From Chloroflexota bacterium (GTDB taxonomy: Bacteria; Chloroflexota; Limnocylindria; Limnocylindrales; CSP1-4): DNA of 44,329 bases. Shown in pieces: positions 4,109 to 25,112 of this stretch. Below the pieces are notes generated by a model. It made no database searches, had not been told where the DNA came from, and was given only the letters and a program-made list of their open reading frames with translations. Position 1 is the first letter of the stretch. Every line of letters starts with the position of its first letter. The translations under genes and the position numbers were made by a program. The stretch spans positions 1 through 44,329 of the forward strand of contig JAJXTS010000004.1 in the NCBI GenBank assembly GCA_021783595.1, given 5' to 3'.

Positions 4109-4114
4109 TCCCGC

Positions 4115-5734: not shown

Positions 5735-5744
5735 GGTTGTTGCC

Positions 5745-7490
5745 ATGAGCCCCGCGCCCAACCCCGCCGACGCCGCGTCCGCCCCGGCAGCCCCTTCCGC
5801 CGGTCCCGGCGCCCTGCGCGCGGCCCTGTCCTCGCCGGCCTCGTTCGCCACCGTGGTGGAGCTGGTGCCCTGGGCGGGCGAGCTCGTGGACCCCAAGGGC
5901 GCCTCGCAGCTCAAGGCCGCCCGGGAGCTGGCCGGCAATCCGCGGGTCACCGCGATGTCCATCACCGACAACGCGGGCGGCCACGCCAAGCTCTCGCCGT
6001 CCGCGCTCGGGGCCGAGGTCGCCAAGCTCGGCCATGACGCCATCGTCCACGTCGCCTGCCGCGACCGCTCGCGCAACGCGCTCCAGAGCTTGGGCTGGGA
6101 GCTGCTCAGCCGCGGGCTCACCTCGGTGCTCGCGCTGACCGGCGACTACCCGGAGTCCGGCTACGAGGGCCTGTCGCGGCCGGTCTTCGACATCGACTCC
6201 GCGGCGCTGCTCCACATGTATCGCGGCCTGGGCGAGGAGGCGGCGGCCAAGGCCGCGGCGGCCGACCCGGAGGCGGACCCGAACGCCCACCGGTTCCTGC
6301 TGGGCTGCGCCATCGACCCCTACAAGCGCGTCGAGCGCGACCTCGTGCCGCAGTACCTCAAGCTCGCGCTCAAGGTGCGCAGCGGGGCGGACTACGCCAT
6401 CGCGCAGGTGGGCTACGACGCGCGCAAGCTGGCCGAGCTGCTGGCGGTCATCCGGCGCGACAGCCTGGGCATCCCGGCCGTCGCCAACGCGTACATCCTC
6501 TCGGCGCCGGTCGCCCGGGCCTTCAACGCCGGCAAGGTCCCCGGCTGCGTGGTCACCGACGACCTGCTCGCGGTGGCCGAGCAGCAGGCCAAGGCGGCCG
6601 ACAAGGGCCGCGCGTTCTTCCTCGAGTTCGCGGCCAAGCAGGCCATCGTGGCGCGCGGGCTCGGCTTCAAGGGCGTCTACTTCTCCGGCCACCGCAACGC
6701 GGGCGAGATCGCCAAGATCCTCGAGCTGATCGACGCCCACCCGGCCGACGACTGGAAGGCGCTCCTGCCGGACGTCTCGTGGGCGCTGCCGGCCGCGTTC
6801 CAGCTGTTCGAGCGCGATGGGGACGGCCTGCCCACGGGTGCGCCCGCCAAGGCCTACGCCCGCTCGATCACGCCAGCGGCCCGCAAGGCGGCCCGGTCCA
6901 AGGTGGACCCGCTCTACCGCTTCAGCCGGATCGTGCACCAGCGCGCGTTCGAGCCGGGCGTGCCCGGGTTCAACGCCTGGGGCAAGGTCTTCGAGCAGAT
7001 CGAGCAGCACAAGCTCGACAAGCCGGTCCACGTGTTCGAGCAGGCCGTCAAGCTGCCCATGTACGACTGCCGGGACTGCGGCGACTGCTCGCTGCCCGAC
7101 ATCGCCTACCTGTGCCCCGAGAGCCACTGCCAGAAGAACCAGCGCAACGGTCCGTGCGGCGGCGCGCACGACGGCCTGTGCGAGGTACCGGGCCACACCT
7201 GCATCTGGGCGGACGCCTACAAGCGCCTCAAGCCGTACGGCGAGGAGCTCGCGATGCTCGACCGGGCGCCGGTGTTCCAGGACAACACGCTGCGGCGCAC
7301 CTCCGCCTGGGGCAACGCGTTCCTCGACCGGGACCACATCGCCAAGCGGCTGGGCCGCGCCAGGCTCCCCGAGGCCGCGCCCGCGCCGGCGCCCAAGCCT
7401 GCGCTGGCGGCCCCGAAGCCGGATGCTGCGCCGGCCGGCCCCAAGCCCGACGCCGAGGGGCCGGCCCCCAAACCCGACGCGACCAGGTGA
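5745..7490 (+). CDS. metF: Methylenetetrahydrofolate reductase with fused C-terminal MetV/MTHFR_C-like Cys-rich domain
   Basis: ITDNAGG, HVACRDRSRNALQS, LALTGDYP, K..SGADYAIAQVGYD; C-terminal CRDCGDC...CPESHCQKNQRNGPCGG...C...CIW. Confidence 0.85.
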   Translation: MSPAPNPADAASAPAAPSAGPGALRAALSSPASFATVVELVPWAGELVDPKGASQLKAARELAGNPRVTAMSITDNAGGHAKLSPSALGAEVAKLGHDAIVHVACRDRSRNALQSLGWELLSRGLTSVLALTGDYPESGYEGLSRPVFDIDSAALLHMYRGLGEEAAAKAAAADPEADPNAHRFLLGCAIDPYKRVERDLVPQYLKLALKVRSGADYAIAQVGYDARKLAELLAVIRRDSLGIPAVANAYILSAPVARAFNAGKVPGCVVTDDLLAVAEQQAKAADKGRAFFLEFAAKQAIVARGLGFKGVYFSGHRNAGEIAKILELIDAHPADDWKALLPDVSWALPAAFQLFERDGDGLPTGAPAKAYARSITPAARKAARSKVDPLYRFSRIVHQRAFEPGVPGFNAWGKVFEQIEQHKLDKPVHVFEQAVKLPMYDCRDCGDCSLPDIAYLCPESHCQKNQRNGPCGGAHDGLCEVPGHTCIWADAYKRLKPYGEELAMLDRAPVFQDNTLRRTSAWGNAFLDRDHIAKRLGRARLPEAAPAPAPKPALAAPKPDAAPAGPKPDAEGPAPKPDATR

Positions 7491-7567
7491 CCGCGGCGCG
7501 GGGCGCGACCGCCCTCGCCCCGCCGCCCGCCGCGACCGGGTGACCGCGACGCGTCGCGCGGGCGACG

Positions 7568-8311
7568 TCAGGCTGCCGGGACCGCCTTGACGACGCCCTC
7601 GTCCCAGCTCATCGCCAGCCGCTCGCCCGGCTGGAGCACGAGCATGTCGTCGTCCCACTCGCCGTAGACCAGCTTGCGCAGGAGGACCATCGAGCCCTCC
7701 ATCTGGTCGAACGCCCAGCCTCGCCGATCTGCCTGCTCGCGCGCGTACGCCGCCGAGGCGGTCTCGTCGGCCACGCCCATCTGCACGAAGGCCGCCCGCT
7801 GGTAGTGCGACTTCCAGGCCCCCATGACCTCCATCAGGTAGTCGGCGTTGTCCTCCCCGTACTTCTCGACGTACTCGGCGCGGATCGCGTCCATGTCGTC
7901 GTCGGCATCGCCGGACACCCCGAGCCCGATGGACTTGGCGTTGTACCCCTGGTTCCGCTCCACCTGGTCGTTCACGTACCAGTACGTGGTCGAGGCCCCG
8001 AACTCCGAGGCGTATCGCTCCCGGTCGCCCAGGAACAGCGTGATGCAGTCGTGGGCGCGGGGCAAGACCACCGGCGTGGCGCGGGCCACGATCCCCGCGG
8101 TCGCGCCGCCGCACAGGCCGTAGCCGAGGACGATGGCGTCGTAGCCCGGCTCCACCGCGTCGATCTCGCGCTGGAGGATGTCGCGCAGCTTGATCGGCTC
8201 GTTGTGCAGGCCGCGGGCGAAGAGCCGGATGTCCACCACGTGAGGCGAGCGGGCGGCGTTGAGGTAGACGGGTCGGGCGACGACGTCGCACGAGATCACG
8301 AGCAGCTTCAT
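7568..8311 (-). CDS. DUF1638 family protein (often associated with corrinoid methyltransferases)
   Basis: MKLLVISCDV, GLHNEP, LGYGLCGG, PRAHDCITLFLGD, EYVEKYGEDNADYL. Confidence 0.8.
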   Translation of the reverse strand: MKLLVISCDVVARPVYLNAARSPHVVDIRLFARGLHNEPIKLRDILQREIDAVEPGYDAIVLGYGLCGGATAGIVARATPVVLPRAHDCITLFLGDRERYASEFGASTTYWYVNDQVERNQGYNAKSIGLGVSGDADDDMDAIRAEYVEKYGEDNADYLMEVMGAWKSHYQRAAFVQMGVADETASAAYAREQADRRGWAFDQMEGSMVLLRKLVYGEWDDDMLVLQPGERLAMSWDEGVVKAVPAA

Positions 8312-8469
8312 CGGGTGGCGGTCCTCATGGGCCCGATCGTAGCAGCGGCCCTCGCCGACCCGGCGCGTGGGCCTGGCCGGGCCGACGCAGTCCCGCGCGG
8401 TCTCGGCGAGCTCTGGCGGCGGTCCCGCGGCCGGGGCAGGTTTCGACGACGCGGGGCATGCTTGGCGCG

Positions 8470-9624
8470 ATGACCGAACCGCACCGACCCTCCCGATCCT
8501 GGAACCCCGCCCCCGCGGAAGACCTACCCGCACCGCGTCGGCGGCCCGCCGAGGAGCGGGCGGCCCTCGCCGCATCGTCCCGCCGCGCCACGCGCCTGGC
8601 GGTCGTCGCCATCGTGGTCGCCGGCATCGCGCTCGGCCTCACGGTCTGGCGCGCGACGGCCCCGTCCGGCGCCTCGTGCCTGACCGACGTCTGGAGCGCC
8701 CAGCCCGCGGCGAGCGAGATTCCCAGCGGGTGGGTCATGGCGGGCACCACGTTCGACACCAACCGCCGCACGACGCAGTACGTCGGCCCGGCCTCGAGCG
8801 CCGGCTCGGGCAGCCCGAACGTGCTGGCCACCGTCACGTGCTTTCCGGACGGCGCGGCCGATGCCGTGGCGCGCGCGGAGGCGGCGGCCCGCTCCATCGG
8901 CCAGCTGGTGAGCACGAAGAGCGACCTCTCCGACGGCGGGTTCGAGGCGACCGACACGTCTGGCGCGATCTTCCTGGAGTTCCGCCGAGGCGCCATCGTG
9001 GTGGACCTCGCGGCAGCCAACGGCGCCACGCCCACCGACATCGAGACCGTGGCGTCGGGCTTCGACAAGGCGCTCGGCGGTGACGGCGGGGCCATCGCCA
9101 CCCCGGCGCCCTCGAGTTCCGGCGCGGCGGCGTCCTCGGCCCCGGCCGCCTCCGGGAGCCCGACCGGGCTCACGCACGACGCCCCGGAACTGGAGAAGCT
9201 GCTGCCCACCCAGATCGCCGGCGTCACCCTCACGGTGGACAGCGCCCTCGGCGGCACCGTGCTGACGTCGGACGCGGGCGGCCGGGCCGCGATCGCCGCC
9301 CTCAAGGCCAAGGGCAAGGTCCCGAACGACCTGCGCTACGCCGAGGCCCTCGACCAGACGCAGACCCTGCAGGTCAGCGTGGTCGCGCTGTCAGTCAACG
9401 GCCTGAGCGCCGCGGACACGAAGGCGATGCTCCTCGACTGGTTCCAGCTCTCGGGGCCGGGCGTGACGCACGCGGAGGTCACCCTGGCCGGCAAGACCTG
9501 GACGAAGTACGACCTGGGGGACGAGGGCGCGATCAACTACTTCCGCACCAGCGGCACGGCGGTCATCGTGATCACGACCGCCGACCCGGCGCTCGCCGCG
9601 GAGGCCGCCGCGGCGATGCCCTGA
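8470..9624 (+). CDS. Hypothetical membrane-anchored extracytoplasmic protein, two domains with Ser/Ala/Pro linker
   Basis: One N-terminal hydrophobic helix (LAVVAIVVAGIALGLTVW), a low-complexity linker and GC-ending codon usage. Start at 8458 or 8470. Confidence 0.7.
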   Translation: MTEPHRPSRSWNPAPAEDLPAPRRRPAEERAALAASSRRATRLAVVAIVVAGIALGLTVWRATAPSGASCLTDVWSAQPAASEIPSGWVMAGTTFDTNRRTTQYVGPASSAGSGSPNVLATVTCFPDGAADAVARAEAAARSIGQLVSTKSDLSDGGFEATDTSGAIFLEFRRGAIVVDLAAANGATPTDIETVASGFDKALGGDGGAIATPAPSSSGAAASSAPAASGSPTGLTHDAPELEKLLPTQIAGVTLTVDSALGGTVLTSDAGGRAAIAALKAKGKVPNDLRYAEALDQTQTLQVSVVALSVNGLSAADTKAMLLDWFQLSGPGVTHAEVTLAGKTWTKYDLGDEGAINYFRTSGTAVIVITTADPALAAEAAAAMP

Positions 9625-9756
9625 CGCCCGAGCGGGTCTCGGGCCGCGCAGCGGCGATGTCCCGGCCGTGCGGCACCTGACGTCCGGGGCCGACCCGGCT
9701 ATGCTGCACCGACGCGGGCAGATGAACCGTCGCACCGGAAGTCTCGGGGGAGCGCC

Positions 9757-10266
9757 GTGCGTGAGCCACTCGTCGCGTGGGCCGGGGACTGCGTCGTCCG
9801 GGGTGACGTCGCCCTCGGGGACGGGCGCCTGAGCGATCAGGTCAACCGGTTCGAGGTCATGACCTTCTTCGGGGCGGTTGTCGATTCCCTCGATGACGGC
9901 CGCCGAGTCGCGCTGGACGAGCTCGAGGTGGAGCGGCACGAGCTCCACATCATCGAGGTGGCGGGCCACCGCGGTGACCCGGCCCGCCGGCTGCGCACGG
10001 TCCCGGAGCGCGTGCGGCTGGAGGTCGGCCCGTTCGACGTGACGGGCTATGTCCACCGGGCGCCGAGTGCCGCTCCCCTGGCGGCGCTGTCCCGCTGGGC
10101 CCGGTTCGTGCCGGTGACCGATGCCGAGTTCCGGTGCGCGGGCCGTGACGACGAGCCCACCCGGCGCGAGGTCGTGCTCGTGAACCGCGACCGGATCAGC
10201 CGCGTGGCCGAGGTGGCGGTGCCCAGCTTCGAGCCCGACCCGCGCTCGGCCGACGCCCCGGTCTGA
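9757..10266 (+). CDS. Hypothetical protein, apparently two tandem DUF6812-like units
   Basis: GGGGAG SD and GTG start. The halves carry G..RLSDQVN and FVPVTDA...VNRDRI motifs. Confidence 0.6.
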   Translation: MREPLVAWAGDCVVRGDVALGDGRLSDQVNRFEVMTFFGAVVDSLDDGRRVALDELEVERHELHIIEVAGHRGDPARRLRTVPERVRLEVGPFDVTGYVHRAPSAAPLAALSRWARFVPVTDAEFRCAGRDDEPTRREVVLVNRDRISRVAEVAVPSFEPDPRSADAPV

Positions 10267-10476: not shown

Positions 10477-12876
10477 ATGGCTGCAACCGTCCACCCGGAC
10501 GCGCGCGTCCCGGCCGCCGATCCTCACCGTGTCGCCCGCGCGCTGATTGTCGAGGGCGTGGTCCAGGGCGTCGGCTTCCGCCCGTTCGTCTGGCGCCTGG
10601 CCACCGAGCTCGGGCTTGCCGGGCGCGTCCGAAACGCGGCCGGGCGGGTCGAGGTGGAGGCTGCCGGGTCCCGCGAGGCGCTGGACGCCCTGGCCCGCCG
10701 GCTGCGCACGGACGCGCCGCCTCGCGCCCGCGTGGAGCGGGTGACCGCGCGGCCGCTGGACCCCGTGCTCGCCGCCGGGCTGCCGGCCGGCTTCGAGATC
10801 GACGAGAGCGTCGTGGCGGCCGCGCAGGACCGGCTCTTCCCGCCGGACATCGCCACCTGCGACGACTGCCTGTCCGAGCTGTTCGACCCGACCGACCGCC
10901 GCTACCGCTACCCGTTCACCAACTGCACCAACTGCGGCCCGCGGGCCACGATCATCGACGAGCTGCCGTACGACCGCGCCCAGACCACGATGCGCGAGTT
11001 CCCGCTGTGCGAGGCCTGCGAGCGCGAGTACCGGGACCCGGCGAACCGCCGCTTCCACGCCGAGCCGGTGGCGTGCCCGGTCTGCGGGCCGCGGCTCTCG
11101 TGGCGGGCCACGGGCGCGCCGGCGCCATCGGCAACGGGCGAGGCGGCGCTGGTCGCGGCGATCGGCGCCCTGCGTGACGGGCAGATCGTCGCGGTCAAGG
11201 GCCTGGGCGGCTACCACCTCGCCTGCGACGCGACCGACGAGGCCTCCGTGCGTCGGCTCCGCGACCGCAAACGGCGCTGGGCGAAGCCCTTGGCGGTGAT
11301 GGTCCGCGACCTGCCGGCGGCCGAGGAGCTGTGCCGTGTCGGCGCCCTGGAGCGACGCCTGCTCACCGGACCGGCGCGGCCGATCGTCCTGCTGGAGGCG
11401 CGGCGGTCCGCCCGGCAGGCCCTCGCCCGGTCCGTTGCCGCGGGCAACCGTCGCCTCGGCGTCTTCCTGCCGTACACCCCGCTCCACCACCTGCTGCTCG
11501 CCCACCTCGGCCGGCCGCTGGTCCTGACGTCGGGCAACCTCACCGACGAACCCCTCGCGACCGACGACGAGGAGGCCCTGGTGCGCCTCGCCGGCCTCGC
11601 GGACGCGTTCCTCGCCCACGACCGCCAGATCCGGGCGCGCTACGACGACTCGGTCACGCGGGTGGTGGCAGGCCGCGAGTCGCTGGTCCGCCGCGCCCGC
11701 GGCTACGCCCCGGAGCCGATGCCGCTGCCGATCGCGACGCCCGTCCCGCTGCTTGCCGTGGGCGCCGAGCTCAAGCACACGTTCACCCTCGCGCGCGGGT
11801 CGCGCGCCCACGTGGCCCCGCACAACGGCGACCTCGAGGACCTCGCCACGCACCGAGCCTTCACCGACGGCCTCGCCCACCTGTCGCGGCTGCTCGCGAT
11901 GGAGCCCGAGGTGGCGGTCCACGACCTCCATCCCGAGTACCTGTCCACCAAGTACGCCGTGGCGCGCTTCGCGGCCGCCAAGCGGATCGCGGTCCAGCAC
12001 CACCACGCGCACCTCGCCTCGTGCGCGGCGGAGCACGGAATCACCGGGCCGTTCCTGGGCGTCGCGTACGACGGCCTGGGCATGGGCGACGACGGCACGC
12101 TGTGGGGCGGGGAGGTGCTGCTGGCGGACCTGCGCGGCTACCGACGCCTCGCCCGCTTCGCCCGGGCGCCGCTCCCCGGCGGGGCGCTGGCGGTCAGGCG
12201 GCCGTACCGGATGGCGCTCGGCTACCTGTTCGGCGGCGAGGCGTTCGACGACGACGCCGTCCCGGGGCTGGCGGATGCCGAGGGGGCCGCGGCCGCGTTC
12301 CTGGCCCGCCTCGACCCGCGCGAGACGGCGCTGGTCCGCACCCAGATTGCGCGCCGGCTCAACGCCCCCGTGGCCTCGTCGGCCGGCCGCCTGTTCGACG
12401 CCGCCGCGGCGCTGCTGGGCATCCGCGACGTGGCCGAGTACGAGGCGCAGGCCGCCGTGGACCTGGAGCTCGCCGCCGGCGACCGAAGGGCCCCCGCGCT
12501 CCCGTACCGGCTCCGCTACCAGGACGGGCTGCTCGTCTACGATCCGCGGCCCACGCTTGCCGCGCTGCTCACGGCCCCGGGGCCCGCCGGGACGCTCGCA
12601 GCCGCCTTCCAGGCGACGATCGCGGAGGTCACCCGCGAGCTGCTCTCCGACGCCCGCGCGCGCACCGGGCTCCGGACGGTGTGCCTCTCGGGCGGCGTGT
12701 TCCAGAACCGCCGGCTGGCGTCCGCGCTCCTGCGCGAGCTTGCGTCGGACGGCTTCGAGCCGAACATCAACCGCCAGGTCCCGGTGAACGACGGCGGGGT
12801 GAGTTATGGTCAGGCCGCGATCGCCGCGGCGCGACTCGCAGCCGGCGCCACGGGTGCGCCGCGATCGGAGGGCTGA
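10477..12876 (+). CDS. hypF: Carbamoyltransferase HypF
   Basis: Acylphosphatase domain ([16 protein letters not shown]), two Zn fingers (CDDC..CTNC; CEAC..CPVC), [42 protein letters not shown]. Confidence 0.97.
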
Positions 12877-12879
12877 ACG

Positions 12880-13230
12880 ATGTGTCTGGGGATCCCGGGG
12901 CGGATCACCGAGATCCGCGACGAGGCCGGCCTCGCCATGGGCAAGGTGGACTTCGGCGGCGTGCGCAAGGACGCCTGCCTCGCCTACCTGCCGGAGGCGC
13001 GGCTGGGCGACTACGTCATCGTCCACGTGGGCTTCGCGATCAGCCGGGTGGACGAGGCGGAGGCCCTCAAGACGCTCCAGATCCTCGACGAGATGGGCGT
13101 CATGGAGCCCGAGCTGATGACCCTGGGCCCCGGCATGGAGGAGCCCGCCCTCATCAGCGACGACGACCCGTCGATCTACGTCTTCGACCCGGCGCAGCCG
13201 CCGTCCAACTTGGCCGGCCCCACGGCATGA
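12880..13230 (+). CDS. hypC: Hydrogenase maturation chaperone HypC with acidic C-terminal extension
   Basis: MCLGIPG N-terminus, [19 protein letters not shown]. Confidence 0.95.
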
Positions 13231-14381
13231 AGTATCTCGACGAGTACCGCGACCCCGTGCTCGCGAAGAGGCTGGTGGCCGAGATCCACCGGATCACCAC
13301 GCGGCCGTGGACCCTCATGGAGGTCTGCGGCGGGCAGACGCACACGATCGTCAAGCAGGGGATCGACGAGGCGCTGCCCGAGGGCGTCCGCATGATCCAC
13401 GGGCCCGGCTGCCCCGTCTGCGTGACGCCGCTCGAGCAGGTGGACAAGGCCCTCGCCATCGCCGCGCGGCCGGACGTGATCTTCACCAGCTACGGCGACA
13501 TGCTGCGCGTGCCCGGCTCGTCGACGGACCTGCTGGCCCTCAAGGCCCGCGGCGCCGACGTCCGCATCGTGTACAGCCCGCTCGACGCGCTCAAGATCGC
13601 GCTCGCGAACCCGGACAAGCAGGTGGTCTTCTTCGCGGTCGGCTTCGAGACCACGGCGCCCGCCAACGCGATGTCGGTGGCGGAGGCTGCCCGGCGGGGG
13701 ATCGACAACTACAGCGTGCTCGTGAGCCACGTGCTGGTGCCCCCGGCCATGACCGCGCTGCTGGACTCGCCCACCAACCGGGTCCAGGGGTTCCTGGCCG
13801 CCGGCCACGTGTGCGCGGTCATGGGCTGGACCGAGTACGAGCCCATCGCCGAGCACTACCGCGTGCCGATCGTGGTCACCGGCTTCGAGCCGCTGGACCT
13901 GCTCGAGGGCGTCTACATGGCCGTCCGCCAGCTGGAGGAGGGGCGCCACGAGGTGGAGAACCAGTACGCGCGCGCCGTCACCCGCGAGGGCGTGCCGCTG
14001 GCCCAGCAGCAGATCCAGCGCGTGTTCGAGGTCGGGCCGCGCAAGTGGCGCGGCGTGGGCGAGATCCCGATGTCCGGCTACCGCCTGCGCCCCGAGTACG
14101 CCCGCTTCGATGCCGAGGAGAAGTTCGACGTCGGCGACATCCGCACCAACGAGCACCCTGCCTGCATGGCGGGCGCCATCCTGACCGGCGAGAAGGTGCC
14201 GCTCGACTGCACCGCGTACGGCACGCTGTGCACCCCGCAGCGGCCGCTCGGCGCGCCGATGGTGTCGTCCGAGGGGACGTGCGCGGCGTTCTTCGCGGCC
14301 GGGCGCGGGCTCGGCGCCGGCCGCGGCTTCTCGGCCGCGCTGCCGCTGGTCCAGGTTGTGCCGGCGGAGGGCGGGCGATGA
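13227..14381 (+). CDS. hypD: Hydrogenase maturation protein HypD
   Basis: [53 protein letters not shown] overlap with hypC. Confidence 0.97.
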
Positions 14382-15457
14382 CGGCCGACCGCGAGGCCGG
14401 GGCCACGATCGACGCCGAGGGCATCGCCTGCCCGGCGCCGATCCCCGAGGACCAGCGGGTCATCCTGGGCCACGGATCGGGCGGCCAGCTGTCCGCGGCG
14501 CTGATGCGGGACCTGCTCGCCCCGGCCCTCGCGGCCGCGTCCCCGGGCGGCGTGCTCAACGACGCGGCCGTCGTTGAGATCGGCGGGGCGCGGCTCGCGT
14601 TCACCACGGACTCCTTCGTGGTCTCGCCGATCCGCTTCCCCGGCGGCGACATCGGCGAGCTGGCGGTGAACGGCACGCTCAACGACCTCGCCATGATGGG
14701 CGCCACGCCGGTGGCGATCAGCCTCGCCTACGTCATCGAGGAGGGGCTGCCGCTCGAGGAGCTGCGCACGATCACCCTGTCGGCGGCGGCTGCGGCGCAG
14801 CGGGCGGGCGCGCAGATCGTCACCGGCGACACCAAGGTGGTGGGCCGCGGCGCGGCGGATCGGCTGTTCGTCAACACCGCCGGGATCGGCCTCATCCGCG
14901 ACGGCATGGAGCCGGCGGCGGACCGGGCCCGGCCGGGCGACGCGGTGATCCTGTCGGGGCCCATCGGCCTGCATGGCGTGGCGATCATGAGCGTCCGCGA
15001 GGGGCTCGAGTTCGAGGTGGAGATCGCCTCGGACACGCAGTCGCTGGCCGGCCTGGTGGCGGCCATCGCGGCGGTGGCGCCCGACGTCCACGTCCTGCGC
15101 GACCCCACGCGCGGCGGCCTCTCGTCGGCGCTCAACGAGATCGCGCAGGCGTCAGGCGTGGGCATGGTCCTCGACGAGCCGGCCATCCCGATCCCGGGCC
15201 CGGTGCGAGCCGCGTGCGAGTTCCTGGGCCTGGACCCGCTCCACGTGGCCAACGAGGGCAAGCTGGTGGCGATCGTGCCGGCGGCCTCAGCGGACGCGGT
15301 GCTCGCCGCGATGCGCGCCACGCCCGAGGGCGCCGAGGCCACGCGCATCGGCGAGGTCGTGGCCGACCACCCGGGCATGGTCACGATGCGCACGATCGTG
15401 GGCAGCGAGCGGATCGTGGACATGCTGGTGGGGGAGCAGCTGCCGCGCATCTGCTGA
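14378..15457 (+). CDS. hypE: Hydrogenase maturation protein HypE
   Basis: [38 protein letters not shown]-terminal LPRIC. ATGA overlap with hypD. Confidence 0.97.
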
Positions 15458-17168: not shown

Positions 17169-17537
17169 TCAGACCGTGCCGAGCGCCTCGTCCTCGACCA
17201 GCCGCAGCAGCTCCACGTTGCTTGCCAGGCGCGAGTTGTGGATGCGCCTCGCAACGTCGAGCAGGTCGAAGATCGCCTCGTCCGCCACGGCGTAGATGAT
17301 GGTGGTGCCGTGTCGCTCGGCCGTCACGATCCCCTGCCCGCGAAGGATCGACAGTTGCTGCGACACGGAGGACCCGCCGCTCGAGGTGGCCTCCTGGAGC
17401 TCGCCGACGGAACGCGCCCCGGATCGCAGGAGCTCGAGGATCCAGATCCGCAGCGGGTGGCCAAGGGCCCTGAAGAACTCCGCCTTGAACCGACGGAGCC
17501 GGTCCGCGTCGTCCGGGCGGCTGGCGGTGTCGCTCAT
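17169..17537 (-). CDS. ArsR/SmtB family regulator, similar to M. tuberculosis Rv0081
   Basis: FKAEFFRALGHPLRIWILELL...SVGELQ...VSQQLSILR...IYAVAD. Divergent from the hyf-like operon. Confidence 0.88.
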   Translation of the reverse strand: MSDTASRPDDADRLRRFKAEFFRALGHPLRIWILELLRSGARSVGELQEATSSGGSSVSQQLSILRGQGIVTAERHGTTIIYAVADEAIFDLLDVARRIHNSRLASNVELLRLVEDEALGTV

Positions 17538-17564
17538 CGGGCCGAGTGTCGCCCATAGGTCATA

Positions 17565-17599
17565 ACTTCGCAAGATACGAACTTCACGGTATTCTGAAG
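17565..17599. promoter_or_regulatory. Two overlapping inverted repeats, candidate ArsR operators
   Basis: ACTTCG-N7-CGAACT (17565-17583, one mismatch) and CTTCA-N8-TGAAG (17582-17599) in an AT-enriched divergent promoter. Confidence 0.5.
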
Positions 17600-17633
17600 C
17601 CATGCCTCTGCGTCCCCGTCGCGGCTCAGGTCG

Positions 17634-19670
17634 ATGGACCTGACAGCCGCCGCCGCCTGCCTCCCGCCCGCGATCGCAGCCCTGCTCGCCCTCGCGCTGG
17701 TGGCTGCGGTGCTGCCGGCGGGGACACGCGCGCGATCCGTCAGCTACGGCGCGGCGGCGGCGGCATCGGCCGTCATGGTGGCGCTGTCCCTCGCGGTCCT
17801 GGCGGGCGCGGCGCCGGTCGCCTTCTCGTGGGGTGCCGTCCTGGGCTTCTCCCTCATCGACGTCCGGATCGACAGCCTGGGCGCCGTCTTCGTCCTCATG
17901 CTCGGGCTCGTGGGCACCGTCGCGTCCGTGTACGCCATCGGCTACGCACCGCACCCGGACGCCAGCGGCGCCCACGACGCGCCGGTCCGCTGGGCGGATC
18001 CGGTCCTGGCCGCCTATCCCGTGTTCCTGGGCAGCATGTTCCTCGTGTTCGGCGCGGCGGACCTCGTGGCGTTCCTCATCGCATGGGAGGCCATGGCCGT
18101 GGCGTCCGCGGCGCTCGTGGTGGGCGGGCGGCCGACGCCCGGCCAGGCGCGGGCCGGCTACCTCTACCTCGTCCTCACGCACCTCGCGACCGGCGCCCTC
18201 GTGGTGGCGTTCGCCGTTGCGGCGGCCGCCGGCGGCACGGCCCTCGACGGTCTGCCGGCCGTCGCGCGCTCCATGTCCGGCCCGACGCGGGACCTGCTGT
18301 TCGTGCTGCTCGCCGTGGGGTTCGCGACCAAGGCCGGCGCCGTGCCGCTGCACGTCTGGCTGCCCCGCGCCCATCCCGTCGCGCCCTCGCCCGTGTCGGC
18401 CCTGATGTCGGGCGTCATGGTGAAGGCCGGGATCTACGGGCTGGTCCGGTTCGTGCTGGTCGGTCTCGGGCCGGGACCCGAGTGGTGGGGCATGGTGGTG
18501 CTGGCGATCGGCACCGTGTCGGCGGTCCTTGGGGTGCTGTACGCGCTGATGGAGCACGATCTCAAGCGGCTCCTGGCCTACTCGACCATCGAGAATGTCG
18601 GGATCGTCCTGATCGGCGTGGGCACGGCGATGCTGGCCCAGGCGGCCGGCCTGCCTAGCCTTGCGACGCTCGCTCTCGCGGCGGCCCTGCTGCACGCCCT
18701 GAACCACGCGGCGATCAAGGGGCTGCTGTTCATGGCTGCGGGCTCCATCGCGCAGGCGGCCGGGACCCGCGACCTCAACCGGCTCGGCGGCCTGTGGCGC
18801 GGCATGCCCGTGACCGCCCTCGCGTTCGGCGTCGGCGCGGCGGCGATGGCCGGGGTGCCGCTGCTGGGCGGCTTCGCCGGCGAGTGGCTCACCTTCCAGG
18901 CGCTGCTCGGCGTGGCCGCGTCGGGCGGCGTGTCGGCGGAGGTTCGCTCCGTGCTGCTCCTGGCCGCGGGCGGGCTCGCCCTGGCCGCGGCGCTCGCCCT
19001 GGCGACCTTCGTCAAGGCGACGGGGACCGGCTTCCTCGCGCTTCCCCGCAGCCAGCCGGCGGCGCTCGCCCGCGAACCGGCGCGAGCGATGGTCTGGGCG
19101 ACGGCCGCCCTCGCCGGGGTGTGCGTCGCGATGGGCCTCGCCGCGGCGCCGATCGCCGGGGTGCTGGCGGGAGCTGCCGGGCCGCTGCTCGGCGTCCTGG
19201 GCGGCGCCGAGCCGGCCGGGCTCGTGCTGGGCGGGCCCGGCGGCGCGGGCTACGGACCCCTGGCGGTCGCCGTCGTGCTCGGCGTGGTGTTCGCCGTCGT
19301 CGGGCTGGCCGGTCGTCGGGGCCGTTCCGTCCGGCGTGTCCCGACCTGGACGTGCGGCATCTCGCCGGAGCCGTCGTTCGAGTACACGGCCACCGGCTAC
19401 GCCAAGCTGCTCCGCCTGTACTTCGGGCCGGTCCTCCGCCCGCAGCGCGAGGTCGAGGTGGAGCTCCATCCCGGCACGCCGTTCCCGCGCGCGGTGAGAT
19501 ACCGCGGCGGCGCCCGCCACCTGATCGACGAGCGCCTGTACGTGCCGCTGCACCGGGCGGCCGTGGCGGCCGCGCAGCTCGCCCGCCGGATTCAGAACGG
19601 CAGCCTCCAGCTGTATCTCGCCTACACCGTGATCGCGCTGGTGGTCCTCCTGCTGGTGGCGCGGCCATGA
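17634..19670 (+). CDS. hyfB: Hydrogenase-4 component B-like antiporter subunit
   Basis: FLIAWEAM, KAGAVPLHVWLPRAHPVAPSPVSALMSG, DLKRLLAYSTIENVG, WTCG, EYTATGYAK. Confidence 0.9.
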   Translation: MDLTAAAACLPPAIAALLALALVAAVLPAGTRARSVSYGAAAAASAVMVALSLAVLAGAAPVAFSWGAVLGFSLIDVRIDSLGAVFVLMLGLVGTVASVYAIGYAPHPDASGAHDAPVRWADPVLAAYPVFLGSMFLVFGAADLVAFLIAWEAMAVASAALVVGGRPTPGQARAGYLYLVLTHLATGALVVAFAVAAAAGGTALDGLPAVARSMSGPTRDLLFVLLAVGFATKAGAVPLHVWLPRAHPVAPSPVSALMSGVMVKAGIYGLVRFVLVGLGPGPEWWGMVVLAIGTVSAVLGVLYALMEHDLKRLLAYSTIENVGIVLIGVGTAMLAQAAGLPSLATLALAAALLHALNHAAIKGLLFMAAGSIAQAAGTRDLNRLGGLWRGMPVTALAFGVGAAAMAGVPLLGGFAGEWLTFQALLGVAASGGVSAEVRSVLLLAAGGLALAAALALATFVKATGTGFLALPRSQPAALAREPARAMVWATAALAGVCVAMGLAAAPIAGVLAGAAGPLLGVLGGAEPAGLVLGGPGGAGYGPLAVAVVLGVVFAVVGLAGRRGRSVRRVPTWTCGISPEPSFEYTATGYAKLLRLYFGPVLRPQREVEVELHPGTPFPRAVRYRGGARHLIDERLYVPLHRAAVAAAQLARRIQNGSLQLYLAYTVIALVVLLLVARP

Positions 19671-20623
19671 CGTGGGACGCAGCCTCGCTCCTCCTCGGGC
19701 TGACCCAGACGGCGCTCGCCCTGGCCATCGCCCCGCTCCTGCTGGGGGTGGCCAAGCGCGTCAAGGCGCGTCTTGGCTACCGGACCGGCGCGCCGCTGCT
19801 CCAGCCCTACCGGGATCTCGCCAAGTGGTGGCGCAAGACCCCCGTGGAGAGCGAGGCGTCGAGCGCGGTGACCGCCTGGGCGCCCGCCGCAGTGGTGGCC
19901 GCGATCGTCACCGCGACGCTGCTCGTGCCGCTGGTGGGGGAGCGCCCGCTGCTGGGCGGCTCGGGCGACTTCCTGGTCGTCGTCGGGCTGCTCGCCGGCG
20001 CCCGGTTCCTCATGGCCCTGCTTGCCCTCGACGCGGGCAGCGCCTTCGGCGGCATGGGCAGCAGCCGCGAGGTGGCGATCGCCGCGCTCGTGGAGCCCGC
20101 GCTGCTGCTCGCGCTCGCCGTGGCCGCCGTCGCGGTCGGGAGCACCGACCTCGCGGTCATCGCCGGCGCCGGCGTGGCGCGCGGTCTCGCCTGGCTCACC
20201 CCGTCGCTGCTGCTTGGCGCCGCGGCGTTCGCGCTGGCGGCCGTCGCCGAGACGGGCCACGAGCCGTTCGACAACCCCGACACGCACCTTGAGCTCACGA
20301 TGGTCCACGAGGGGATGCTGCTGGAGGCGTCCGGGCCCCGGCTGGCGATGCTCGCGTACGCCGCGCAGCTGCGCCTCGTCGTGGTGGCATCGCTGTTCGC
20401 GGCCGCGTTCTTCCCGTTCGGCATGACCGTCGCGCTCACGCCGCTGTCGGTCGCCGTCGCGCTCGCCGCCGCGGTCGCCAAGCTGCTCGCCGCGGCCGTC
20501 GCGCTGGCGCTCCTCGACGCCGGGCTCGCGAAGCTTCGGATCCTGGCGCTGCCGGGCCTGCTCGGGTTCGCCTCCACGCTGGCCGTGATCGGGCTCGCTG
20601 CCCGCCTTTGGCTGCCGGCATGA
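19667..20623 (+). CDS. hyfC: HyfC/HycD (NuoH-like) membrane subunit
   Basis: GAPLLQPYRDLAKWWRK, DAGSAFGGMGSSRE, ETGHEPFDNPDTHLELTMVHEGMLLEASG. ATGA overlap. Confidence 0.9.
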   Translation: MTWDAASLLLGLTQTALALAIAPLLLGVAKRVKARLGYRTGAPLLQPYRDLAKWWRKTPVESEASSAVTAWAPAAVVAAIVTATLLVPLVGERPLLGGSGDFLVVVGLLAGARFLMALLALDAGSAFGGMGSSREVAIAALVEPALLLALAVAAVAVGSTDLAVIAGAGVARGLAWLTPSLLLGAAAFALAAVAETGHEPFDNPDTHLELTMVHEGMLLEASGPRLAMLAYAAQLRLVVVASLFAAAFFPFGMTVALTPLSVAVALAAAVAKLLAAAVALALLDAGLAKLRILALPGLLGFASTLAVIGLAARLWLPA

Positions 20624-21285
20624 TTCTCGACCCGAGCACCGCCTCGCAGCTCGTGGACGCGGTCGCCGCGGCGGTCGTGGTCCTGGGCATCGGCATCGCC
20701 TCCACGCGGTCGCTCGGCCGGATGATCTGGGTGACGGCCGCCCAGTCCGCGCTGGTGGGCGCCGCCGCGCTCGTCGTGGCGGCCGCGACCGGGGCCGCCC
20801 ACCTGGCGCTTGGCGGCGTGCTGGCGATCGGCGTCAAGGGCGTCGTGGTGCCCCTGGTGCTGGGGTCCATCCTGCGGCGGTCCTCGGTGCGTCAGGAGCG
20901 CCGCCCGGTCGTGGCGCCCCGCGTCACGTTCGTGCTGGCCGTGGTCATCGTGTTCGTCGCCACCGCCGCCACCCACGACGTCCGGCTGCCCGTGGCGCTC
21001 GACGCCGCCCGTGCGCTGCCCGCGGCCATCAGCACGCTGCTCACGGGGCTGCTGATCGTCATGACCCGGCGCAAGACGCTGTCGCTCGTGGTGGGGCTGC
21101 TGGTGTTCGAGAACGGGATCGCGCTGGCCGCGTTCTCGCTCGTGTACGCCATGCCGATCGTGGTGGAGCTGGGCGTCCTGTTCGACCTGCTCATCGCCGT
21201 TGTCGTGGCGTGGGTGTACTCGCGCCGGATGCTCGACGTGCTCGGCACGCTGTCCACCGACGAGCTGCGGAACCTGCGCGGATGA
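20620..21285 (+). CDS. hyfE: HyfE/HycP-like membrane subunit
   Basis: GLLVFENGI, ELGVLFDLL, C-terminal ELRNLRG. ATGA overlap. Confidence 0.85.
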   Translation: MILDPSTASQLVDAVAAAVVVLGIGIASTRSLGRMIWVTAAQSALVGAAALVVAAATGAAHLALGGVLAIGVKGVVVPLVLGSILRRSSVRQERRPVVAPRVTFVLAVVIVFVATAATHDVRLPVALDAARALPAAISTLLTGLLIVMTRRKTLSLVVGLLVFENGIALAAFSLVYAMPIVVELGVLFDLLIAVVVAWVYSRRMLDVLGTLSTDELRNLRG

Positions 21286-22769
21286 CCGAGCTGCTGACCC
21301 TGGCCATCGCGCTGGCGCCCGTCCTCGGGGCCCTCGCGGCGTGGTCCGCCGGGAAGGGGGGCAGGGCGCGCCTGGCGATGGGCATCGGCATCACCGCGAC
21401 CGGCACCTCCATGGCCGCGGCCGCGGCGCTCGGGGCATGGGTCTTCGCCGCGGGGACCGAGACCGCGTTCTCCGGGCTGGTGACCGTGGACGCACTGGGC
21501 GCGTACATGCTGCTGCTGGTGGCTGCCGTGGCCGCCATCGCGTTGGCGGCGTCGCCCGGGTACCTGGCGCGCCATCGGGCCGACGGCACCCTGCCGCCGC
21601 TCGAGGAGGGAACCTACTGGGCGCTGCTCGCGCTGTTCGCGGGCGGGCTCGCGACGGTGCCGCTGGTCGACAATCTGGGCCTCGTCTGGGTGGGGATCGA
21701 GGCGACGACCGCGGTGTCCGCGCTGCTGGTCGGCTTCACGCGGTCGCCGCGCGCGATCGAGGCGGCCTGGAAGTACCTGATCCTCGGGTCGATCGGGATC
21801 GGCTTCGCGCTGCTCGGCACGATGCTCCTGTTCGCCGCCGCGGGCCCGGCCGCGGACGCCGGCAACGCCCTCGCCTGGACCGAGCTGGGCCGGTCCGCGG
21901 CGAGCCTGGACCCGGAACTGCTGCGCCTGGCGTTCGTGTTCGCGCTCGTCGGCTACGGGACCAAGGCGGGTCTCGCGCCCTTCCACACGTGGCTCCCCGA
22001 CGCCCACAGCCAGGCGCCCGCCCCGATCTCCGCGCTGCTCTCGGGGGCCGGTCTGGCGGTGGCCCTGTACGCGCTGGCGCGGTTCCACCACATCGTCGCG
22101 ACGGCGCTCGGCCCCGGCTTCTCGGGGACGCTCCTGGTCGCCTTCGGCCTGCTCAGCCTGGCCGTGGCCCTGCCGTTCATCGTGGCGCAGGGAGACCTCA
22201 AGCGGCTCCTCGCGTACTCGTCCATCGAGCACCTCGGGCTCGCCACGCTCGCCCTCGGGTTCGGCGGCCGCCTGGCCCTGGCCGGCCTCGCGCTCCACCT
22301 GTTCTGCCACGGGCTCGCCAAGGCGTCCGCGTTCGTCGCGGCCGGCCGGCTCGTCGAGGAGGCGGGCAGCCACCGCATCGGCCGGCTCCGCGGCAGCCTG
22401 ACCCGATCGCCCGCGGCGGCGCGCGCGCTGGTCGTCGCGTCCCTGATGCTGTCGGGCCTGCCGCCGTCGGGCATCTTCGTGGCCGAGCTGGCGATCCTGT
22501 TCGGCGGGGTGGCCGCTGGCTGGGCGCTGGCCGCGGCCGTGGCGGCCGTGCTGCTGGCGCTCGCCGTGGCGGGGCTGCTGTTCCACGTGGCGCGGGTGGC
22601 GGTCGGACCCAACCGCGCGCGCGGGCCGCGAGTCTCCATCCGCGCCCGGACGGCGCTGGCGCTGGCGGCACCGCTGGCGCTGGTGGCGGCAGCGGGCCTG
22701 TGGACGCCGTCGCCGGTGGCGGCCGCCATCGCGCAGATCGTGGCCGTCCTCGGAGGCGGCCATGGATGA
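21282..22769 (+). CDS. hyfF: HyfF/HycQ-like antiporter subunit
   Basis: WVGIEATT, EAAWKYLILGS, GYGTKAGLAPFHTWLPDAHSQAPAPISALLSG, KRLLAYSSIEH. Confidence 0.9.
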   Translation: MTELLTLAIALAPVLGALAAWSAGKGGRARLAMGIGITATGTSMAAAAALGAWVFAAGTETAFSGLVTVDALGAYMLLLVAAVAAIALAASPGYLARHRADGTLPPLEEGTYWALLALFAGGLATVPLVDNLGLVWVGIEATTAVSALLVGFTRSPRAIEAAWKYLILGSIGIGFALLGTMLLFAAAGPAADAGNALAWTELGRSAASLDPELLRLAFVFALVGYGTKAGLAPFHTWLPDAHSQAPAPISALLSGAGLAVALYALARFHHIVATALGPGFSGTLLVAFGLLSLAVALPFIVAQGDLKRLLAYSSIEHLGLATLALGFGGRLALAGLALHLFCHGLAKASAFVAAGRLVEEAGSHRIGRLRGSLTRSPAAARALVVASLMLSGLPPSGIFVAELAILFGGVAAGWALAAAVAAVLLALAVAGLLFHVARVAVGPNRARGPRVSIRARTALALAAPLALVAAAGLWTPSPVAAAIAQIVAVLGGGHG

Positions 22770-24279
22770 GACGAGGGCCGGCGCGTGCGCGCAGGTGCCG
22801 GCGAGCGGCTTGGCCGAGGCGGTGGGCAGGAGCGTTGCGGCAGGCGGCCGGTACGCCATGCTGGTCGGTCTCGACGAGCGCTCGCTGGGCGGCGCAGGGC
22901 TCGGCCTGGAGGCGGTCCTCGTTGGCCCCGGCGGCGACCTGGAGCGGATCCGGGCGGCGGTGCCGCTGGACGCGACGGGCTACCCCTCGATCACGCCCCT
23001 CGTGCCGGCCGCCCACTGGGACGAGCGCGAGGCGCGCGACCTGCTGGGCACCGTCCCGGTCGGCCATCCGGACCCGCGGCGGCTCGTGCTTCACGAGCGT
23101 TGGCCGCGCGGCTACCACCCGCTGCGCAAGGACGTGCCCGTCGGGGCGCGGCCGCCGCTCGCGGACCGTCGCTTCGCGCCGTTCGAGGTGCACGGGGAGG
23201 GGACGTACGCGCTGCCGGTCGGGCCGATCCACGCGGGGATCATCGAGCCCGGCCACTTCCGCTTCTCCGCCATCGGGGAGCGCGTGCTGCACCTCGACCC
23301 GCGTCTGTTCTTCGCCCACCGCGGCCTCGAGAAACTGGCGGAGGGGCGGCCGCTGGCCGGGGCGACGCCGCTCATCGAGCGGGCCTGCGGCGTGTGCGGG
23401 GTGGCGCACGGCGTTGCCTGGGCCAGCGCGGTCGAGGCGCTCACCGGCACCCGGGCCCCGGCCCGTGCCGCATGGGCGCGGGTCCTGCTGGCCGAGCTCG
23501 AGAGGCTCTACAACCACGTCGGCGATCTCGGGAGCATCTGCGCCGGGATCGGTTTCGGGTCCGGCGCGGCGCGCCTGGGGCTGCTTCGGGAGCGCCTGGT
23601 GCGGGCGAACGACGCGCTCGTCGGGCACCGCTACCTCGCGGGGATCGTCGTTCCGGGCGGGCTCGGCCGGCCGCTGGACGCCGCCGCCCTGGCCGCGCTG
23701 CCCGGCCTCGTCGCCGACATCGAGGCCCAGGTGGCCGCCGCGGTGCGGTCGATCGTCCGCTCGGACGGCGTGATGGCCCGCCTCCGGACCACCGGCGCGG
23801 TCCCGGCCGAGACGGCAGCGGCGCTCGGGGCGACCGGCGTCGCCGCGCGGGCCAGCGGGATCGATGCCGACCTGCGTCGCGACCGCCCCTACGCCGCGTA
23901 CGCCGAGCTCGACGTGTCGGTGGCCACCGCCGCCTCGGGCGACGTCGCGGCGCGCTTCCACGTCCGGGCGCAGGAGGCGGCCGCGTCCGCTCGGCTGGTG
24001 GTCGAGGCCGCTCGCAGGCTGCCCGTCGGCGAGGATCGGGTGCCGCTCGGTGAGGCTCGTGCCGGCGAGGTTGCGATCGCGGGTGTCGAGGGGCCGCGGG
24101 GCGCGTCCTGGCTGTGGCTGCGGGCGGGTGACGCCGGGACCGTGGACCGCGTCCGGCTGCGCTCGGCGTCGTTCGCCAACTGGCCCCTGGTGGCGGCCGC
24201 CATGCCCGGCAACGTGGTGCCCGACTTCCCGCTCATCAACAAGAGCTTCGAGCTCTGCTACGCCTGCACGGACCGCTGA
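22762..24279 (+). CDS. hyfG: Group 4 [NiFe]-hydrogenase/Ehr-type large subunit (NuoC+NuoD-like), both CxxC motifs intact
   Basis: EREARDLLG, VGPIHAGIIEPGHFRF, HRGLEKL; L1 ERACGVCGVAH; C-terminus DFPLINKSFELCYACTDR*. Confidence 0.9.
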   Translation: MDETRAGACAQVPASGLAEAVGRSVAAGGRYAMLVGLDERSLGGAGLGLEAVLVGPGGDLERIRAAVPLDATGYPSITPLVPAAHWDEREARDLLGTVPVGHPDPRRLVLHERWPRGYHPLRKDVPVGARPPLADRRFAPFEVHGEGTYALPVGPIHAGIIEPGHFRFSAIGERVLHLDPRLFFAHRGLEKLAEGRPLAGATPLIERACGVCGVAHGVAWASAVEALTGTRAPARAAWARVLLAELERLYNHVGDLGSICAGIGFGSGAARLGLLRERLVRANDALVGHRYLAGIVVPGGLGRPLDAAALAALPGLVADIEAQVAAAVRSIVRSDGVMARLRTTGAVPAETAAALGATGVAARASGIDADLRRDRPYAAYAELDVSVATAASGDVAARFHVRAQEAAASARLVVEAARRLPVGEDRVPLGEARAGEVAIAGVEGPRGASWLWLRAGDAGTVDRVRLRSASFANWPLVAAAMPGNVVPDFPLINKSFELCYACTDR

Positions 24280-24281
24280 CC

Positions 24282-25112
24282 ATGCCCTTCGACGTGCTCG
24301 ACCGCTACCTGCGACCGCTTCGCCACGGCCGCGCCACCAGCCGCTATCCCGCCGAGGCGCCGGACCTGTCGCCGGCGTCGCGCGGGCTGCCGGCCCTCGA
24401 CGCGGCAGCGTGCGACCGGAGCGGCTCGTGCGCGGCCGTCTGCCCGACGGGCGCGATCAAGCTGGAGTCGGACGGCTGGCGGCTCGATGCGGGCTCCTGC
24501 CTGCTGTGCGACGCCTGCGTCGCGGCCTGCCCGACCGGCGCGCTGGGCCACACCGGCGAGATCGAGCTGGCGACCCGTCGCCGGAGCGACCTGGTGGTGC
24601 TGGGCGAGCCGCCCTGGGCCGTCGAGGGGGGCGCCGCCGGCAAAGCCCTCGCCGAGGCGAGAGCCCTGGCCGACGCGAACGCCCTCGCCACCGCGATCGA
24701 CCGTCGCCTGGGCCGGTCGCTCCACGTCCGCCACCTCGACGCCGGCTCCTGCAACGGGTGCGACTGGGAGATGAGCGCCCTGCTCAACCCGTACCACGAC
24801 GTCACGCGGTTCGGCGTGGACTTCGTGGCCTCGCCGCGCCACGCGGACGTGCTCCTGGTGACGGGCACGATGACCCGCAACCTCGAGGAGGCCGCGGTGC
24901 GGACGTACGAGGCCATGCCGGAGCCGCGGCTGGTCGTGGCGGTTGGCGCCTGCGCCATCGGCGGCGGGGTCTTCGCCGGCAGCTACGCCGGGCGGGACGG
25001 CATCGGCGAGGTGCTGCCGGCGGACGTGCTCATCCCGGGCTGCCCGCCGCGCCCGGAGGCGCTGATCCAGGGCCTGCTGCTGCTTGCCGACCGCTGGGTC
25101 CCGCGCGGGTAG
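24282..25112 (+). CDS. hyfI: Fused ferredoxin (HyfH/NuoI-like) + hydrogenase small subunit (HyfI/NuoB-like)
   Basis: CDRSGSCAAVCP and CLLCDACVAACP, then GSCNGCDWE, SPRHADVLLVTG, GACAIGGG, IPGCPP. Confidence 0.88.
   Translation: MPFDVLDRYLRPLRHGRATSRYPAEAPDLSPASRGLPALDAAACDRSGSCAAVCPTGAIKLESDGWRLDAGSCLLCDACVAACPTGALGHTGEIELATRRRSDLVVLGEPPWAVEGGAAGKALAEARALADANALATAIDRRLGRSLHVRHLDAGSCNGCDWEMSALLNPYHDVTRFGVDFVASPRHADVLLVTGTMTRNLEEAAVRTYEAMPEPRLVVAVGACAIGGGVFAGSYAGRDGIGEVLPADVLIPGCPPRPEALIQGLLLLADRWVPRG

Follow-up and report, generated by a model that had tools for sequence, protein, structure and literature searches.

The six-gene operon at positions 17634–25112 (+ strand) of the stretch of DNA analyzed here probably specifies a [NiFe] hydrogenase of HydDB group 4f (“Ehf”), an enzyme that is membrane-bound and resembles complex I. 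The stretch, called the window below, comprises 44,329 nucleotides (positions 1 to 44,329 of contig JAJXTS010000004.1, assembly GCA_021783595.1) from a Limnocylindria-like Chloroflexota metagenome-assembled genome (MAG). The original prediction had presented the operon as an Ehr-like complex that keeps all four Ni-ligating cysteines and bridges true hydrogenases and Ehr. The complex is an ordinary member of a catalogued, biochemically uncharacterized class, and it forms no new bridge between the two.

Large subunit motifs and C-terminal tail

The large subunit (22762..24279, + strand, 505 aa) is a fusion of NuoC-like and NuoD-like parts, recognized by Pfam Complex1_30kDa, Complex1_49kDa, and NiFeSe_Hases (N-terminal signature). 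Its L1 motif is ERACGVCGVAH, which contains C209 and C212, and its C-terminus, ending at the stop codon, is DFPLINKSFELCYACTDR, which contains C499 and C502. In an alignment of 22 sequences at 37–78% identity, C209, C212, and C499 were invariant, and C502 was at least 90% conserved; given conservation over that range, the four-cysteine pattern is not a product of chance. The presence of this L1 motif and this C-terminus in a six-gene complex was confirmed by the open reading frames (ORFs), the Pfam and NCBIfam matches, and the 22-sequence alignment.

For group 4, the motifs defined by Vignais and Billoud, as given in the legend to Fig. 7 of PMC7886697, are C[GS][ILV]C[AGNS]xxH for L1 and [DE][PL]Cx[AGST]Cx[DE][RL] for L2. 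Both are matched by the large subunit, with CGVCGVAH and ELCYACTDR, respectively. Because the L2 pattern begins [DE][PL]CxxC, it already accommodates E-L as well as D-P in group 4. A homologue search returned 6890 proteins at E ≤ 0.001, and the best 120 of these (67–100% identity) were used for tail and L1 statistics. In 119 of the 120, the protein ends in ELCYAC[T/A/S]DR with nothing after it. The strict published L1 pattern fits just 22/120, because the fifth position is Thr in most of these homologues; when only CxxC was required in L1, 116/120 matched, mostly as CGVCTVTH.

The sole exception to the common ending is P0040, a protein of the four-cysteine Limnocylindrales group that is 72% identical to the window protein and ends in ELSYSGCDM. 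Both of its L2 cysteines are lost, and its tail resembles those of cysteine-less proteins from Nitrospirota. P0040 could reflect recent loss, recombination, or a chimeric assembly.

The last 19 residues were aligned without gaps to E. coli HycE by HMMER (PDFPLINKSFELCYACTDR vs. SDAPLIIGSLDPCYSCTDR). The large subunit terminates at R505, which aligns to R537, the cleavage site of HycE; there is no C-terminal extension to be removed, as had been predicted. For comparison across genomes, 80 related loci were fetched with flanks of up to 10 kb (some contigs were shorter). They comprised 31 four-cysteine, 45 cysteine-less, 2 partial, and 2 truncated loci. The same tail, again with no extension, was present in all 31 four-cysteine loci. 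The pairing of an Ehr-type tail with intact ligands had been put forward as an unusual combination. That view did not survive these comparisons, given the published L2 motif, the 119 of the best 120 homologues, and the 31/31 four-cysteine loci; “Ehr tail plus CxxC” is the family norm, a description of group 4f and no anomaly.

Catalytic residues and fold

The closest solved structure by sequence was E. coli HycE (7z0s_E; E = 7.8e-81), and the pairwise alignment gave 37.5% identity over 477 residues. The functional residues of HycE are named in the paper on the E. coli formate hydrogenlyase (FHL) structure (PMC9474812). Most of these are retained in the window protein: H188 (H157), the proton-donating E193 (E162), C241 and C244 (C209 and C212), H284 (H252), R395 (R363), E437 (E405), the canopy residue R478 (R446), and C531 and C534 (C499 and C502). 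Three are changed, namely D192 (Ile), S283 (N251), and the canopy residue D529 (E497). EchE, according to the same paper, likewise has only the Glu of the D192/E193 pair (PMC9474812).

The large subunit was modeled with AlphaFold2 (predicted local distance difference test score (pLDDT) 84.7, predicted template-modeling score 0.88). The best match of this model in the Protein Data Bank (PDB) was HycE of 7Z0S, with template-modeling (TM) scores of 0.88/0.84. Its sequence marks the large subunit as an apparently competent hydrogenase of group 4, and the earlier description of a catalytically active enzyme of that group is supported as probable.

Placement in group 4f

Among cluster representatives at 50% identity, 939 matched the large subunit at E ≤ 1e-30. 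The best 150 of the 939 were of three types: four-cysteine proteins with the tail DFPL[IV]NKSF[EN]LCYxCxDR, cysteine-less proteins ending in DFPLxNKSFNLSYxGxDL, and a few HycE-like proteins with a long C-terminal extension. One of these representatives, P0134, shares 48% identity with the window protein (E = 8.7e-116); its accession is ACL22289.1, from Desulfitobacterium hafniense DCB-2. The complex ACL22288-93 has been assigned to group 4f with a citation of HydDB (PMC9888536). Two further six-gene clusters of group 4f are in print, Desor_1265-1270 of Desulfosporosinus orientis (PMC7248197) and ehfA-F (bioRxiv 2025.08.29.672306).

Two trees were calculated. The FastTree tree (211 rows) held the window protein, 78 of the 80 loci (the two truncated ones were removed), 125 of the 150 representatives (those shorter than 440 aa were removed), four close homologues, and E. 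coli HycE, HyfG, and NuoCD. The IQ-TREE tree (LG+C20 PMSF, quick search) held 69 hand-picked rows. The labelled references were the three E. coli proteins only. In both, every protein with a DFPL..NKSF tail fell into one large clade that was split from the HycE/HyfG clade. Support for the HycE/HyfG clade vs. the tail clade was 87 vs. 99 in FastTree, and the values of the Shimodaira–Hasegawa-like approximate likelihood-ratio test (SH-aLRT) were 95 vs. 98 in IQ-TREE.

In the IQ-TREE tree, the DFPL..NKSF clade comprised 63 rows, 42 of them four-cysteine (the window protein and ACL22289 among these) and 21 cysteine-less. The window protein belonged to a fully supported subclade of seven rows, all four-cysteine, with four MAG loci from Chloroflexota/Limnocylindrales (L001–L004) and two database proteins. 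L013, the locus of a congener of Desulfosporosinus orientis, was sister to P0134 with full support. The assignment to group 4f is indirect, made through the clade shared with the published 4f protein ACL22289 (SH-aLRT 98). On this phylogeny, the “4f-like” part of the original prediction holds, and the novelty does not; the alternatives “unclassified” and “bridging” give way to a published motif and a family-wide tail.

The cysteine-less rows formed two groups among four-cysteine lineages, with a poorly resolved backbone between them, and the cysteine-less state appears to need at least two changes inside the clade. Judged from the trees, the cysteine-less Ehr-like proteins are nested among the four-cysteine 4f enzymes. 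Typical residues at their four ligand positions are S-S/T-S-G. As predicted, there are cysteine-less homologues that combine the DFPLxNKSFxLSY tail with this six-gene set (45 of the 80 loci). The original prediction named mycobacterial HycE as an example without CxxC motifs; no mycobacterial name turned up in the clusters of Actinomycetota-type representatives, and the Actinomycetota members retrieved all keep four cysteines. Because cysteine-less proteins with the same tail and gene order sit inside the clade, the “Ehr tail” is best described as a trait of the whole 4f/Ehr clade. HydDB excludes Ehr as non-hydrogenases and annotates 4f as “formate-coupled (putative), undetermined role” (PMC5037454), and some “group 4f” sequences have already been treated as Ehr for their missing ligands (bioRxiv 10.1101/328856). 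The closeness of 4f and Ehr is therefore already in print, and the window protein lies on the hydrogenase side.

The likenesses and differences follow from this position. With the D. hafniense and D. orientis systems, the operon shares six genes, a NuoC+NuoD four-cysteine large subunit, and the end DFPLINKSFELCYxCxDR; it differs from them in its host, a Limnocylindria-like Chloroflexota MAG, and in the hypFCDE genes and corrinoid methyltransferase cluster upstream. With Ehr, it shares the six-gene module, the PDFPLxNKSFxL-Y tail, and a common superclade, but the window protein has the four Ni/Fe cysteines that Ehr proteins lack. Hydrogenase 3 of E. coli (HycE, 7Z0S), which belongs to group 4a together with hydrogenase 4 (HyfG), provides the nearest solved structure, and the membrane subunits of the window operon are Hyf-like. 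Unlike Hyc and Hyf, the window operon has no HycB, FdhF, HycH, HycI, or cleaved extension, and EL replaces DP before the L2 cysteines. There are two antiporter-like subunits, compared to one in Hyc and three in Hyf.

Two other memberships were considered and rejected. Ehr was rejected on account of the four Ni/Fe cysteines. Group 4a formate hydrogenlyase was rejected on account of the separate clade, the lack of HycB and FdhF in the window, the lack of an extension, and the lack of HycI nearby.

Small subunit and membrane arm

The small subunit (24282..25112, + strand, 276 aa; Pfam Fer4_7 and Oxidored_q6) is a HycF/NuoI-like ferredoxin domain fused to a HycG/NuoB-like domain. HycF aligns to residues 13–105 and HycG to residues 134–267, and the proximal [4Fe-4S] ligands C157, C160, C224, and C254 align to C48, C51, C115, and C145 of HycG. 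The HycF-like domain is of the two-cluster ferredoxin type and has seven cysteines. The position of S47 in this domain is occupied by a residue other than Cys in all six Chloroflexota relatives that have the domain (L001–L005 and L012); HycF, HyfH, and NuoI of E. coli read CxxCxxCxxxCP. The three-Cys entry site may hold a [3Fe-4S] cluster or one with a non-Cys ligand. By analogy with other 7-Cys ferredoxins, this could be a [3Fe-4S] cluster of higher potential.

In FHL, a C-terminal extension of HycF with a cysteine quartet contacts HycB (PMC9474812); by alignment, this quartet has no counterpart in the window small subunit. The module itself varies. The window protein has its 7-Cys HycF-like domain fused; at the Desulfosporosinus locus L013 and in the Actinomycetota loci, the small subunit consists of the NuoB part only; and in some relatives, the domain is encoded by a gene of its own. 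Across 4f, the HycF-like module was accordingly found fused, separate, or absent (L013 and L016–L024 vs. L001, L002, L005, and L009). Because it varies in this way, the route of electron entry differs between members.

The membrane arm is encoded by the first four genes. These specify a HyfB-like antiporter-like subunit with a C-terminal ND3-like part (17634..19670, + strand, 678 aa; NCBIfam “hydrogenase 4 subunit B”, E = 1.4e-163, below the curated cut-off; Pfam Proton_antipo_M), a HycD/NuoH (ND1)-like membrane anchor (19667..20623, + strand, 318 aa; Pfam NADHdh, E = 7e-32; ATGA overlap with hyfB), a HyfE-like small membrane subunit (20608..21285, + strand; NCBIfam NF008556 “hydrogenase 4 membrane subunit”, E = 9.2e-28, below cut-off), and a second antiporter-like subunit of the HyfF type (21282..22769, + strand, 495 aa; NCBIfam “hydrogenase 4 subunit F”, E = 1.1e-102, below cut-off). 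The start of the HyfE-like gene is likely the ATG at 20620. When aligned to HycC, the HyfB-like subunit keeps E152, K233, H247, K264, H354, K362, E417, and the loop residue C574; the HyfF-like subunit keeps E140, K228, H242, H339, and K347. The pair formed by Glu of transmembrane helix (TM) 5 and Lys of TM7 is kept in both, whereas in E. coli HycC the Lys is replaced by Leu. From these residues, the arm looks able to pump.

Operon layout and adjacent genes

The window has a G+C content of 74%. All six ORFs are on the + strand, and their five junctions are overlaps of 4–16 nt or a 2-nt gap; the genes are translationally coupled. Seven functional modules are encoded by the six genes. Divergent from the operon lies a gene for an ArsR/SmtB-family regulator (17169..17537, − strand, 122 aa; Pfam HTH_5, E = 2.7e-8), separated from it by a comparatively A+T-rich spacer of 96 bp. 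This regulator, which faces the operon (window 17169–17633), has no cysteines. An EamA-type transporter gene and the regulator gene are situated between the hyp genes and the operon.

Neither a formate dehydrogenase nor a CO dehydrogenase was found among the window ORFs scanned with Pfam, in agreement with the prediction that none would be adjacent; HycB and FdhF are likewise absent from the window. The sequencing runs that contain the operon stretch number four, all of them DNA from one study, with no RNA run listed; the DNA occurs in a habitat of mine drainage or tailings.

Related loci and same-genus genomes

The full six-gene set was found at 27/31 four-cysteine loci and 36/45 cysteine-less loci, in the same order except that the small-subunit gene comes first in some cysteine-less loci. 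A homologue of the ArsR regulator was present in 17/31 four-cysteine loci, which span several phyla, and in 6/45 cysteine-less loci; it also accompanies the operon in two genomes of the same genus (G019 and G006). One-carbon genes were found in 2/31 four-cysteine loci and 0/49 others. The two are L002, from a 72%-identical relative, with a full-length MttB gene (12407–13906) directly after the small subunit, and L008, with an MTHFR gene before the operon. The flanks of 11 of the 31 four-cysteine loci were scanned with Pfam, and they contained no formate or CO dehydrogenase, no HycB-like connector, and no recurrent redox partner.

At E ≤ 1e-40, the operon was matched in 5 of 24 other genomes of the genus (G001–G024; completeness 62–98%) and in 0/16 from a second family of the order; its distribution is therefore patchy. 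In G019, the ArsR gene, the operon, and the helicase gene downstream of it are all retained. No MttB gene occurs in the fetched stretches of G019 and G006.

Maturation genes and genome context

The assembly comprises 2.6 Mb in 258 contigs and is 85.6% complete. Upstream of the operon, on the + strand, are hypF (10315.., with its start probably at 10411 or 10477; Pfam HypF domains), hypC (12880–13230; Pfam HupF_HypC), hypD (13227–14381; TIGR00075, E = 1.2e-142, above cut-off), and hypE (14378–15457; Pfam AIRS). From the end of hypFCDE to the start of the operon is 2177 bp, and this is the sole hypFCDE copy detected in the 2.6-Mb assembly. Three other [NiFe] hydrogenase large subunits are encoded on contigs C130, C61, and C249, two of them group 1/2-like and one Vhu/Mvh-like. 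The genome has two HycI-type proteases, each beside a group 1/2-like hydrogenase, and none was found near the operon.

Upstream of hypF (window 3–8638) is a corrinoid methyl-transfer cluster, with two MttB-family methyltransferases, a B12-binding corrinoid protein, and RACo. The same cluster contains an MTHFR-like protein with a DUF5981 C-terminus and DUF1638. Beside it, the ORFs at 8263–9624 and 9625–10266 have no assigned family. The genome holds five MttB genes, one of them beside an FdhA-type formate dehydrogenase gene of selenocysteine type (G000:C101:178-2190 (-)). The latter scored 653.6 bits against TIGR01591 (cut-off 666) and has one in-frame TGA, which suggests selenocysteine. Its contig, C101, is 4.9 kb long, and the MttB-family gene adjoins it.

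Proposed function and alternatives

The best reading of the operon, by analogy, is a ferredoxin:proton oxidoreductase that would evolve H2 and conserve energy, Ech-like in its working and built of Hyf-type parts. It draws on the lack of a dedicated dehydrogenase, a HycF-like domain that lacks the HycB-contacting part, a complete catalytic site, and a pump-like arm. A soluble donor is favored by the lack of formate and CO dehydrogenases in the 11 scanned loci, together with the missing counterpart of the HycF quartet. The comparison with Ech (group 4e) is one of function only: each is a small membrane-bound complex that lacks a dehydrogenase dedicated to it. HydDB describes the Ech-type group 4e as ferredoxin-coupled and physiologically reversible (PMC5037454).

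In such an enzyme, reduced ferredoxin, as a low-potential soluble donor, would be oxidized at the N-terminal, two-cluster HycF-like domain of the small subunit. The electrons would then move to the proximal [4Fe-4S] cluster of the NuoB-like domain (C157, C160, C224, C254) and on to a NiFe(CN)2CO site whose ligands in the large subunit are C209, C212, C499, and C502. Protons arriving via E162 of the β1–β2 loop would be reduced to H2 at this site, and the free energy would drive proton translocation by way of HycD, HyfE, HyfB, and HyfF. The large subunit would be made at its mature length, ending at R505, and would need no endopeptidase; the single hypFCDE set would build the cofactor. From the established gene set, residues, fold, and clade, we infer activity, pumping, donor, and direction with differing confidence. 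That the hydrogenase is active is likely. Proton pumping is somewhat less secure, though still favored, and H2 evolution as the usual direction is favored to a similar degree. Ferredoxin is proposed tentatively as the donor, at slightly below even odds.

Several observations weigh against this reading. The text of the FHL structure paper describes the canopy aspartate (HycE D529) as strictly conserved (PMC9474812), and in the HycE alignment the window protein has Glu at this position (E497) and Leu for the following Pro. This Asp-to-Glu change is conservative, and it is the one notable departure, common to the whole clade. The AlphaFold2 model has a pLDDT below 50 at residues 154–163 (the β1–β2 loop) and 483–502, both of them active-site segments, and ligand geometry is uncheckable from it. 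The first ferredoxin motif of the small subunit is C44-S47-C50-C54 (CxxSxxCxxxCP), with Ser for the second Cys. In the 85.6%-complete assembly, HypA was represented by a weak match only, and HypB was not found. Adjacency to hyp genes is not conserved, there being hyp homologues in 0/80 loci and none in the fetched stretches of G019 or G006. To our knowledge, no group 4f enzyme has been purified. The nearness of hypFCDE, about 2 kb from the operon start, had been offered as evidence for activity. The position is correct, but the single set must serve all four [NiFe] hydrogenases, and its proximity is therefore weak evidence.

An arrangement like formate hydrogenlyase, with an unlinked formate dehydrogenase feeding the HycF-like domain and formate oxidation coupled to H2 evolution and proton translocation, is unlikely, although it has some encouragement. 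It would agree with the HydDB label of 4f (“formate-coupled (putative)”; PMC5037454) and with a report of a joint increase of ehfA-F and two formate dehydrogenases in Methylocystis when the pH is low (bioRxiv 2025.08.29.672306). A candidate partner is also encoded in the genome, the C101 FdhA with its one in-frame TGA. However, its contig is only 4.9 kb, and the neighbor of FdhA there is an MttB-family gene and not a hydrogenase gene. In addition, neither a formate dehydrogenase nor a HycB-like connector was found in the window or in the 11 scanned four-cysteine flanks, and the part of HycF that contacts HycB is missing from the window protein.

The complex could also work in reverse, with H2 oxidation driven by the proton-motive force to make reduced ferredoxin, e.g. 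for the reductive reactivation of corrinoid proteins. We consider this a little less likely again. RACo and a corrinoid methyltransferase system are located 9–17 kb upstream of the operon, and a three-Cys entry cluster, if it is a [3Fe-4S] cluster of higher potential, would fit this direction. The reversibility that HydDB ascribes to Ech-type group 4e would fit as well (PMC5037454). However, the upstream neighborhood is not conserved in relatives, and two group 1/2-like hydrogenases and one Vhu/Mvh-like hydrogenase are already present for H2 uptake.

A complex that despite its cysteines is no hydrogenase, and that couples another redox reaction to ion translocation as Ehr complexes do, is very improbable: cysteine-less relatives with the same genes and tail are nested in the clade through at least two independent losses, P0040 at 72% identity lacks both L2 cysteines, and the canopy Asp is Glu, but the maturation genes are present, and conservation of the four cysteines and proton-path residues across 37–78% identity would be unexplained if there were no metal site.

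Implications

For the organism, a more specific role of the group 4f hydrogenase can be imagined, although as a whole it is speculative and improbable. The enzyme would be the terminal, proton-pumping electron sink of methyl-group oxidation in this Limnocylindria-like lineage. MttB, the corrinoid protein, RACo, and the MTHFR-like protein would channel the methyl groups of methylated amines into the folate pathway. The reductant so produced (ferredoxin and/or formate, the latter via the selenocysteine FdhA) would be disposed of as H2, with the lineage-specific 7-Cys HycF–HycG fusion as the entry port. If true, group 4f would for the first time have a defined role in physiology and a defined donor.

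For the family, the window locus offers a clean and complete example of 4f. Its genes are coupled, its catalytic residues are kept except for one Asp-to-Glu change, its membrane arm appears pump-like, and no protease should be needed. Group 4f is widespread, with matches from many phyla among the 939 cluster representatives (50% identity, E ≤ 1e-30). With the cysteine-less Ehr proteins apparently nested in it, and their cysteines lost more than once, group 4f would be the natural reference point for the function of Ehr.

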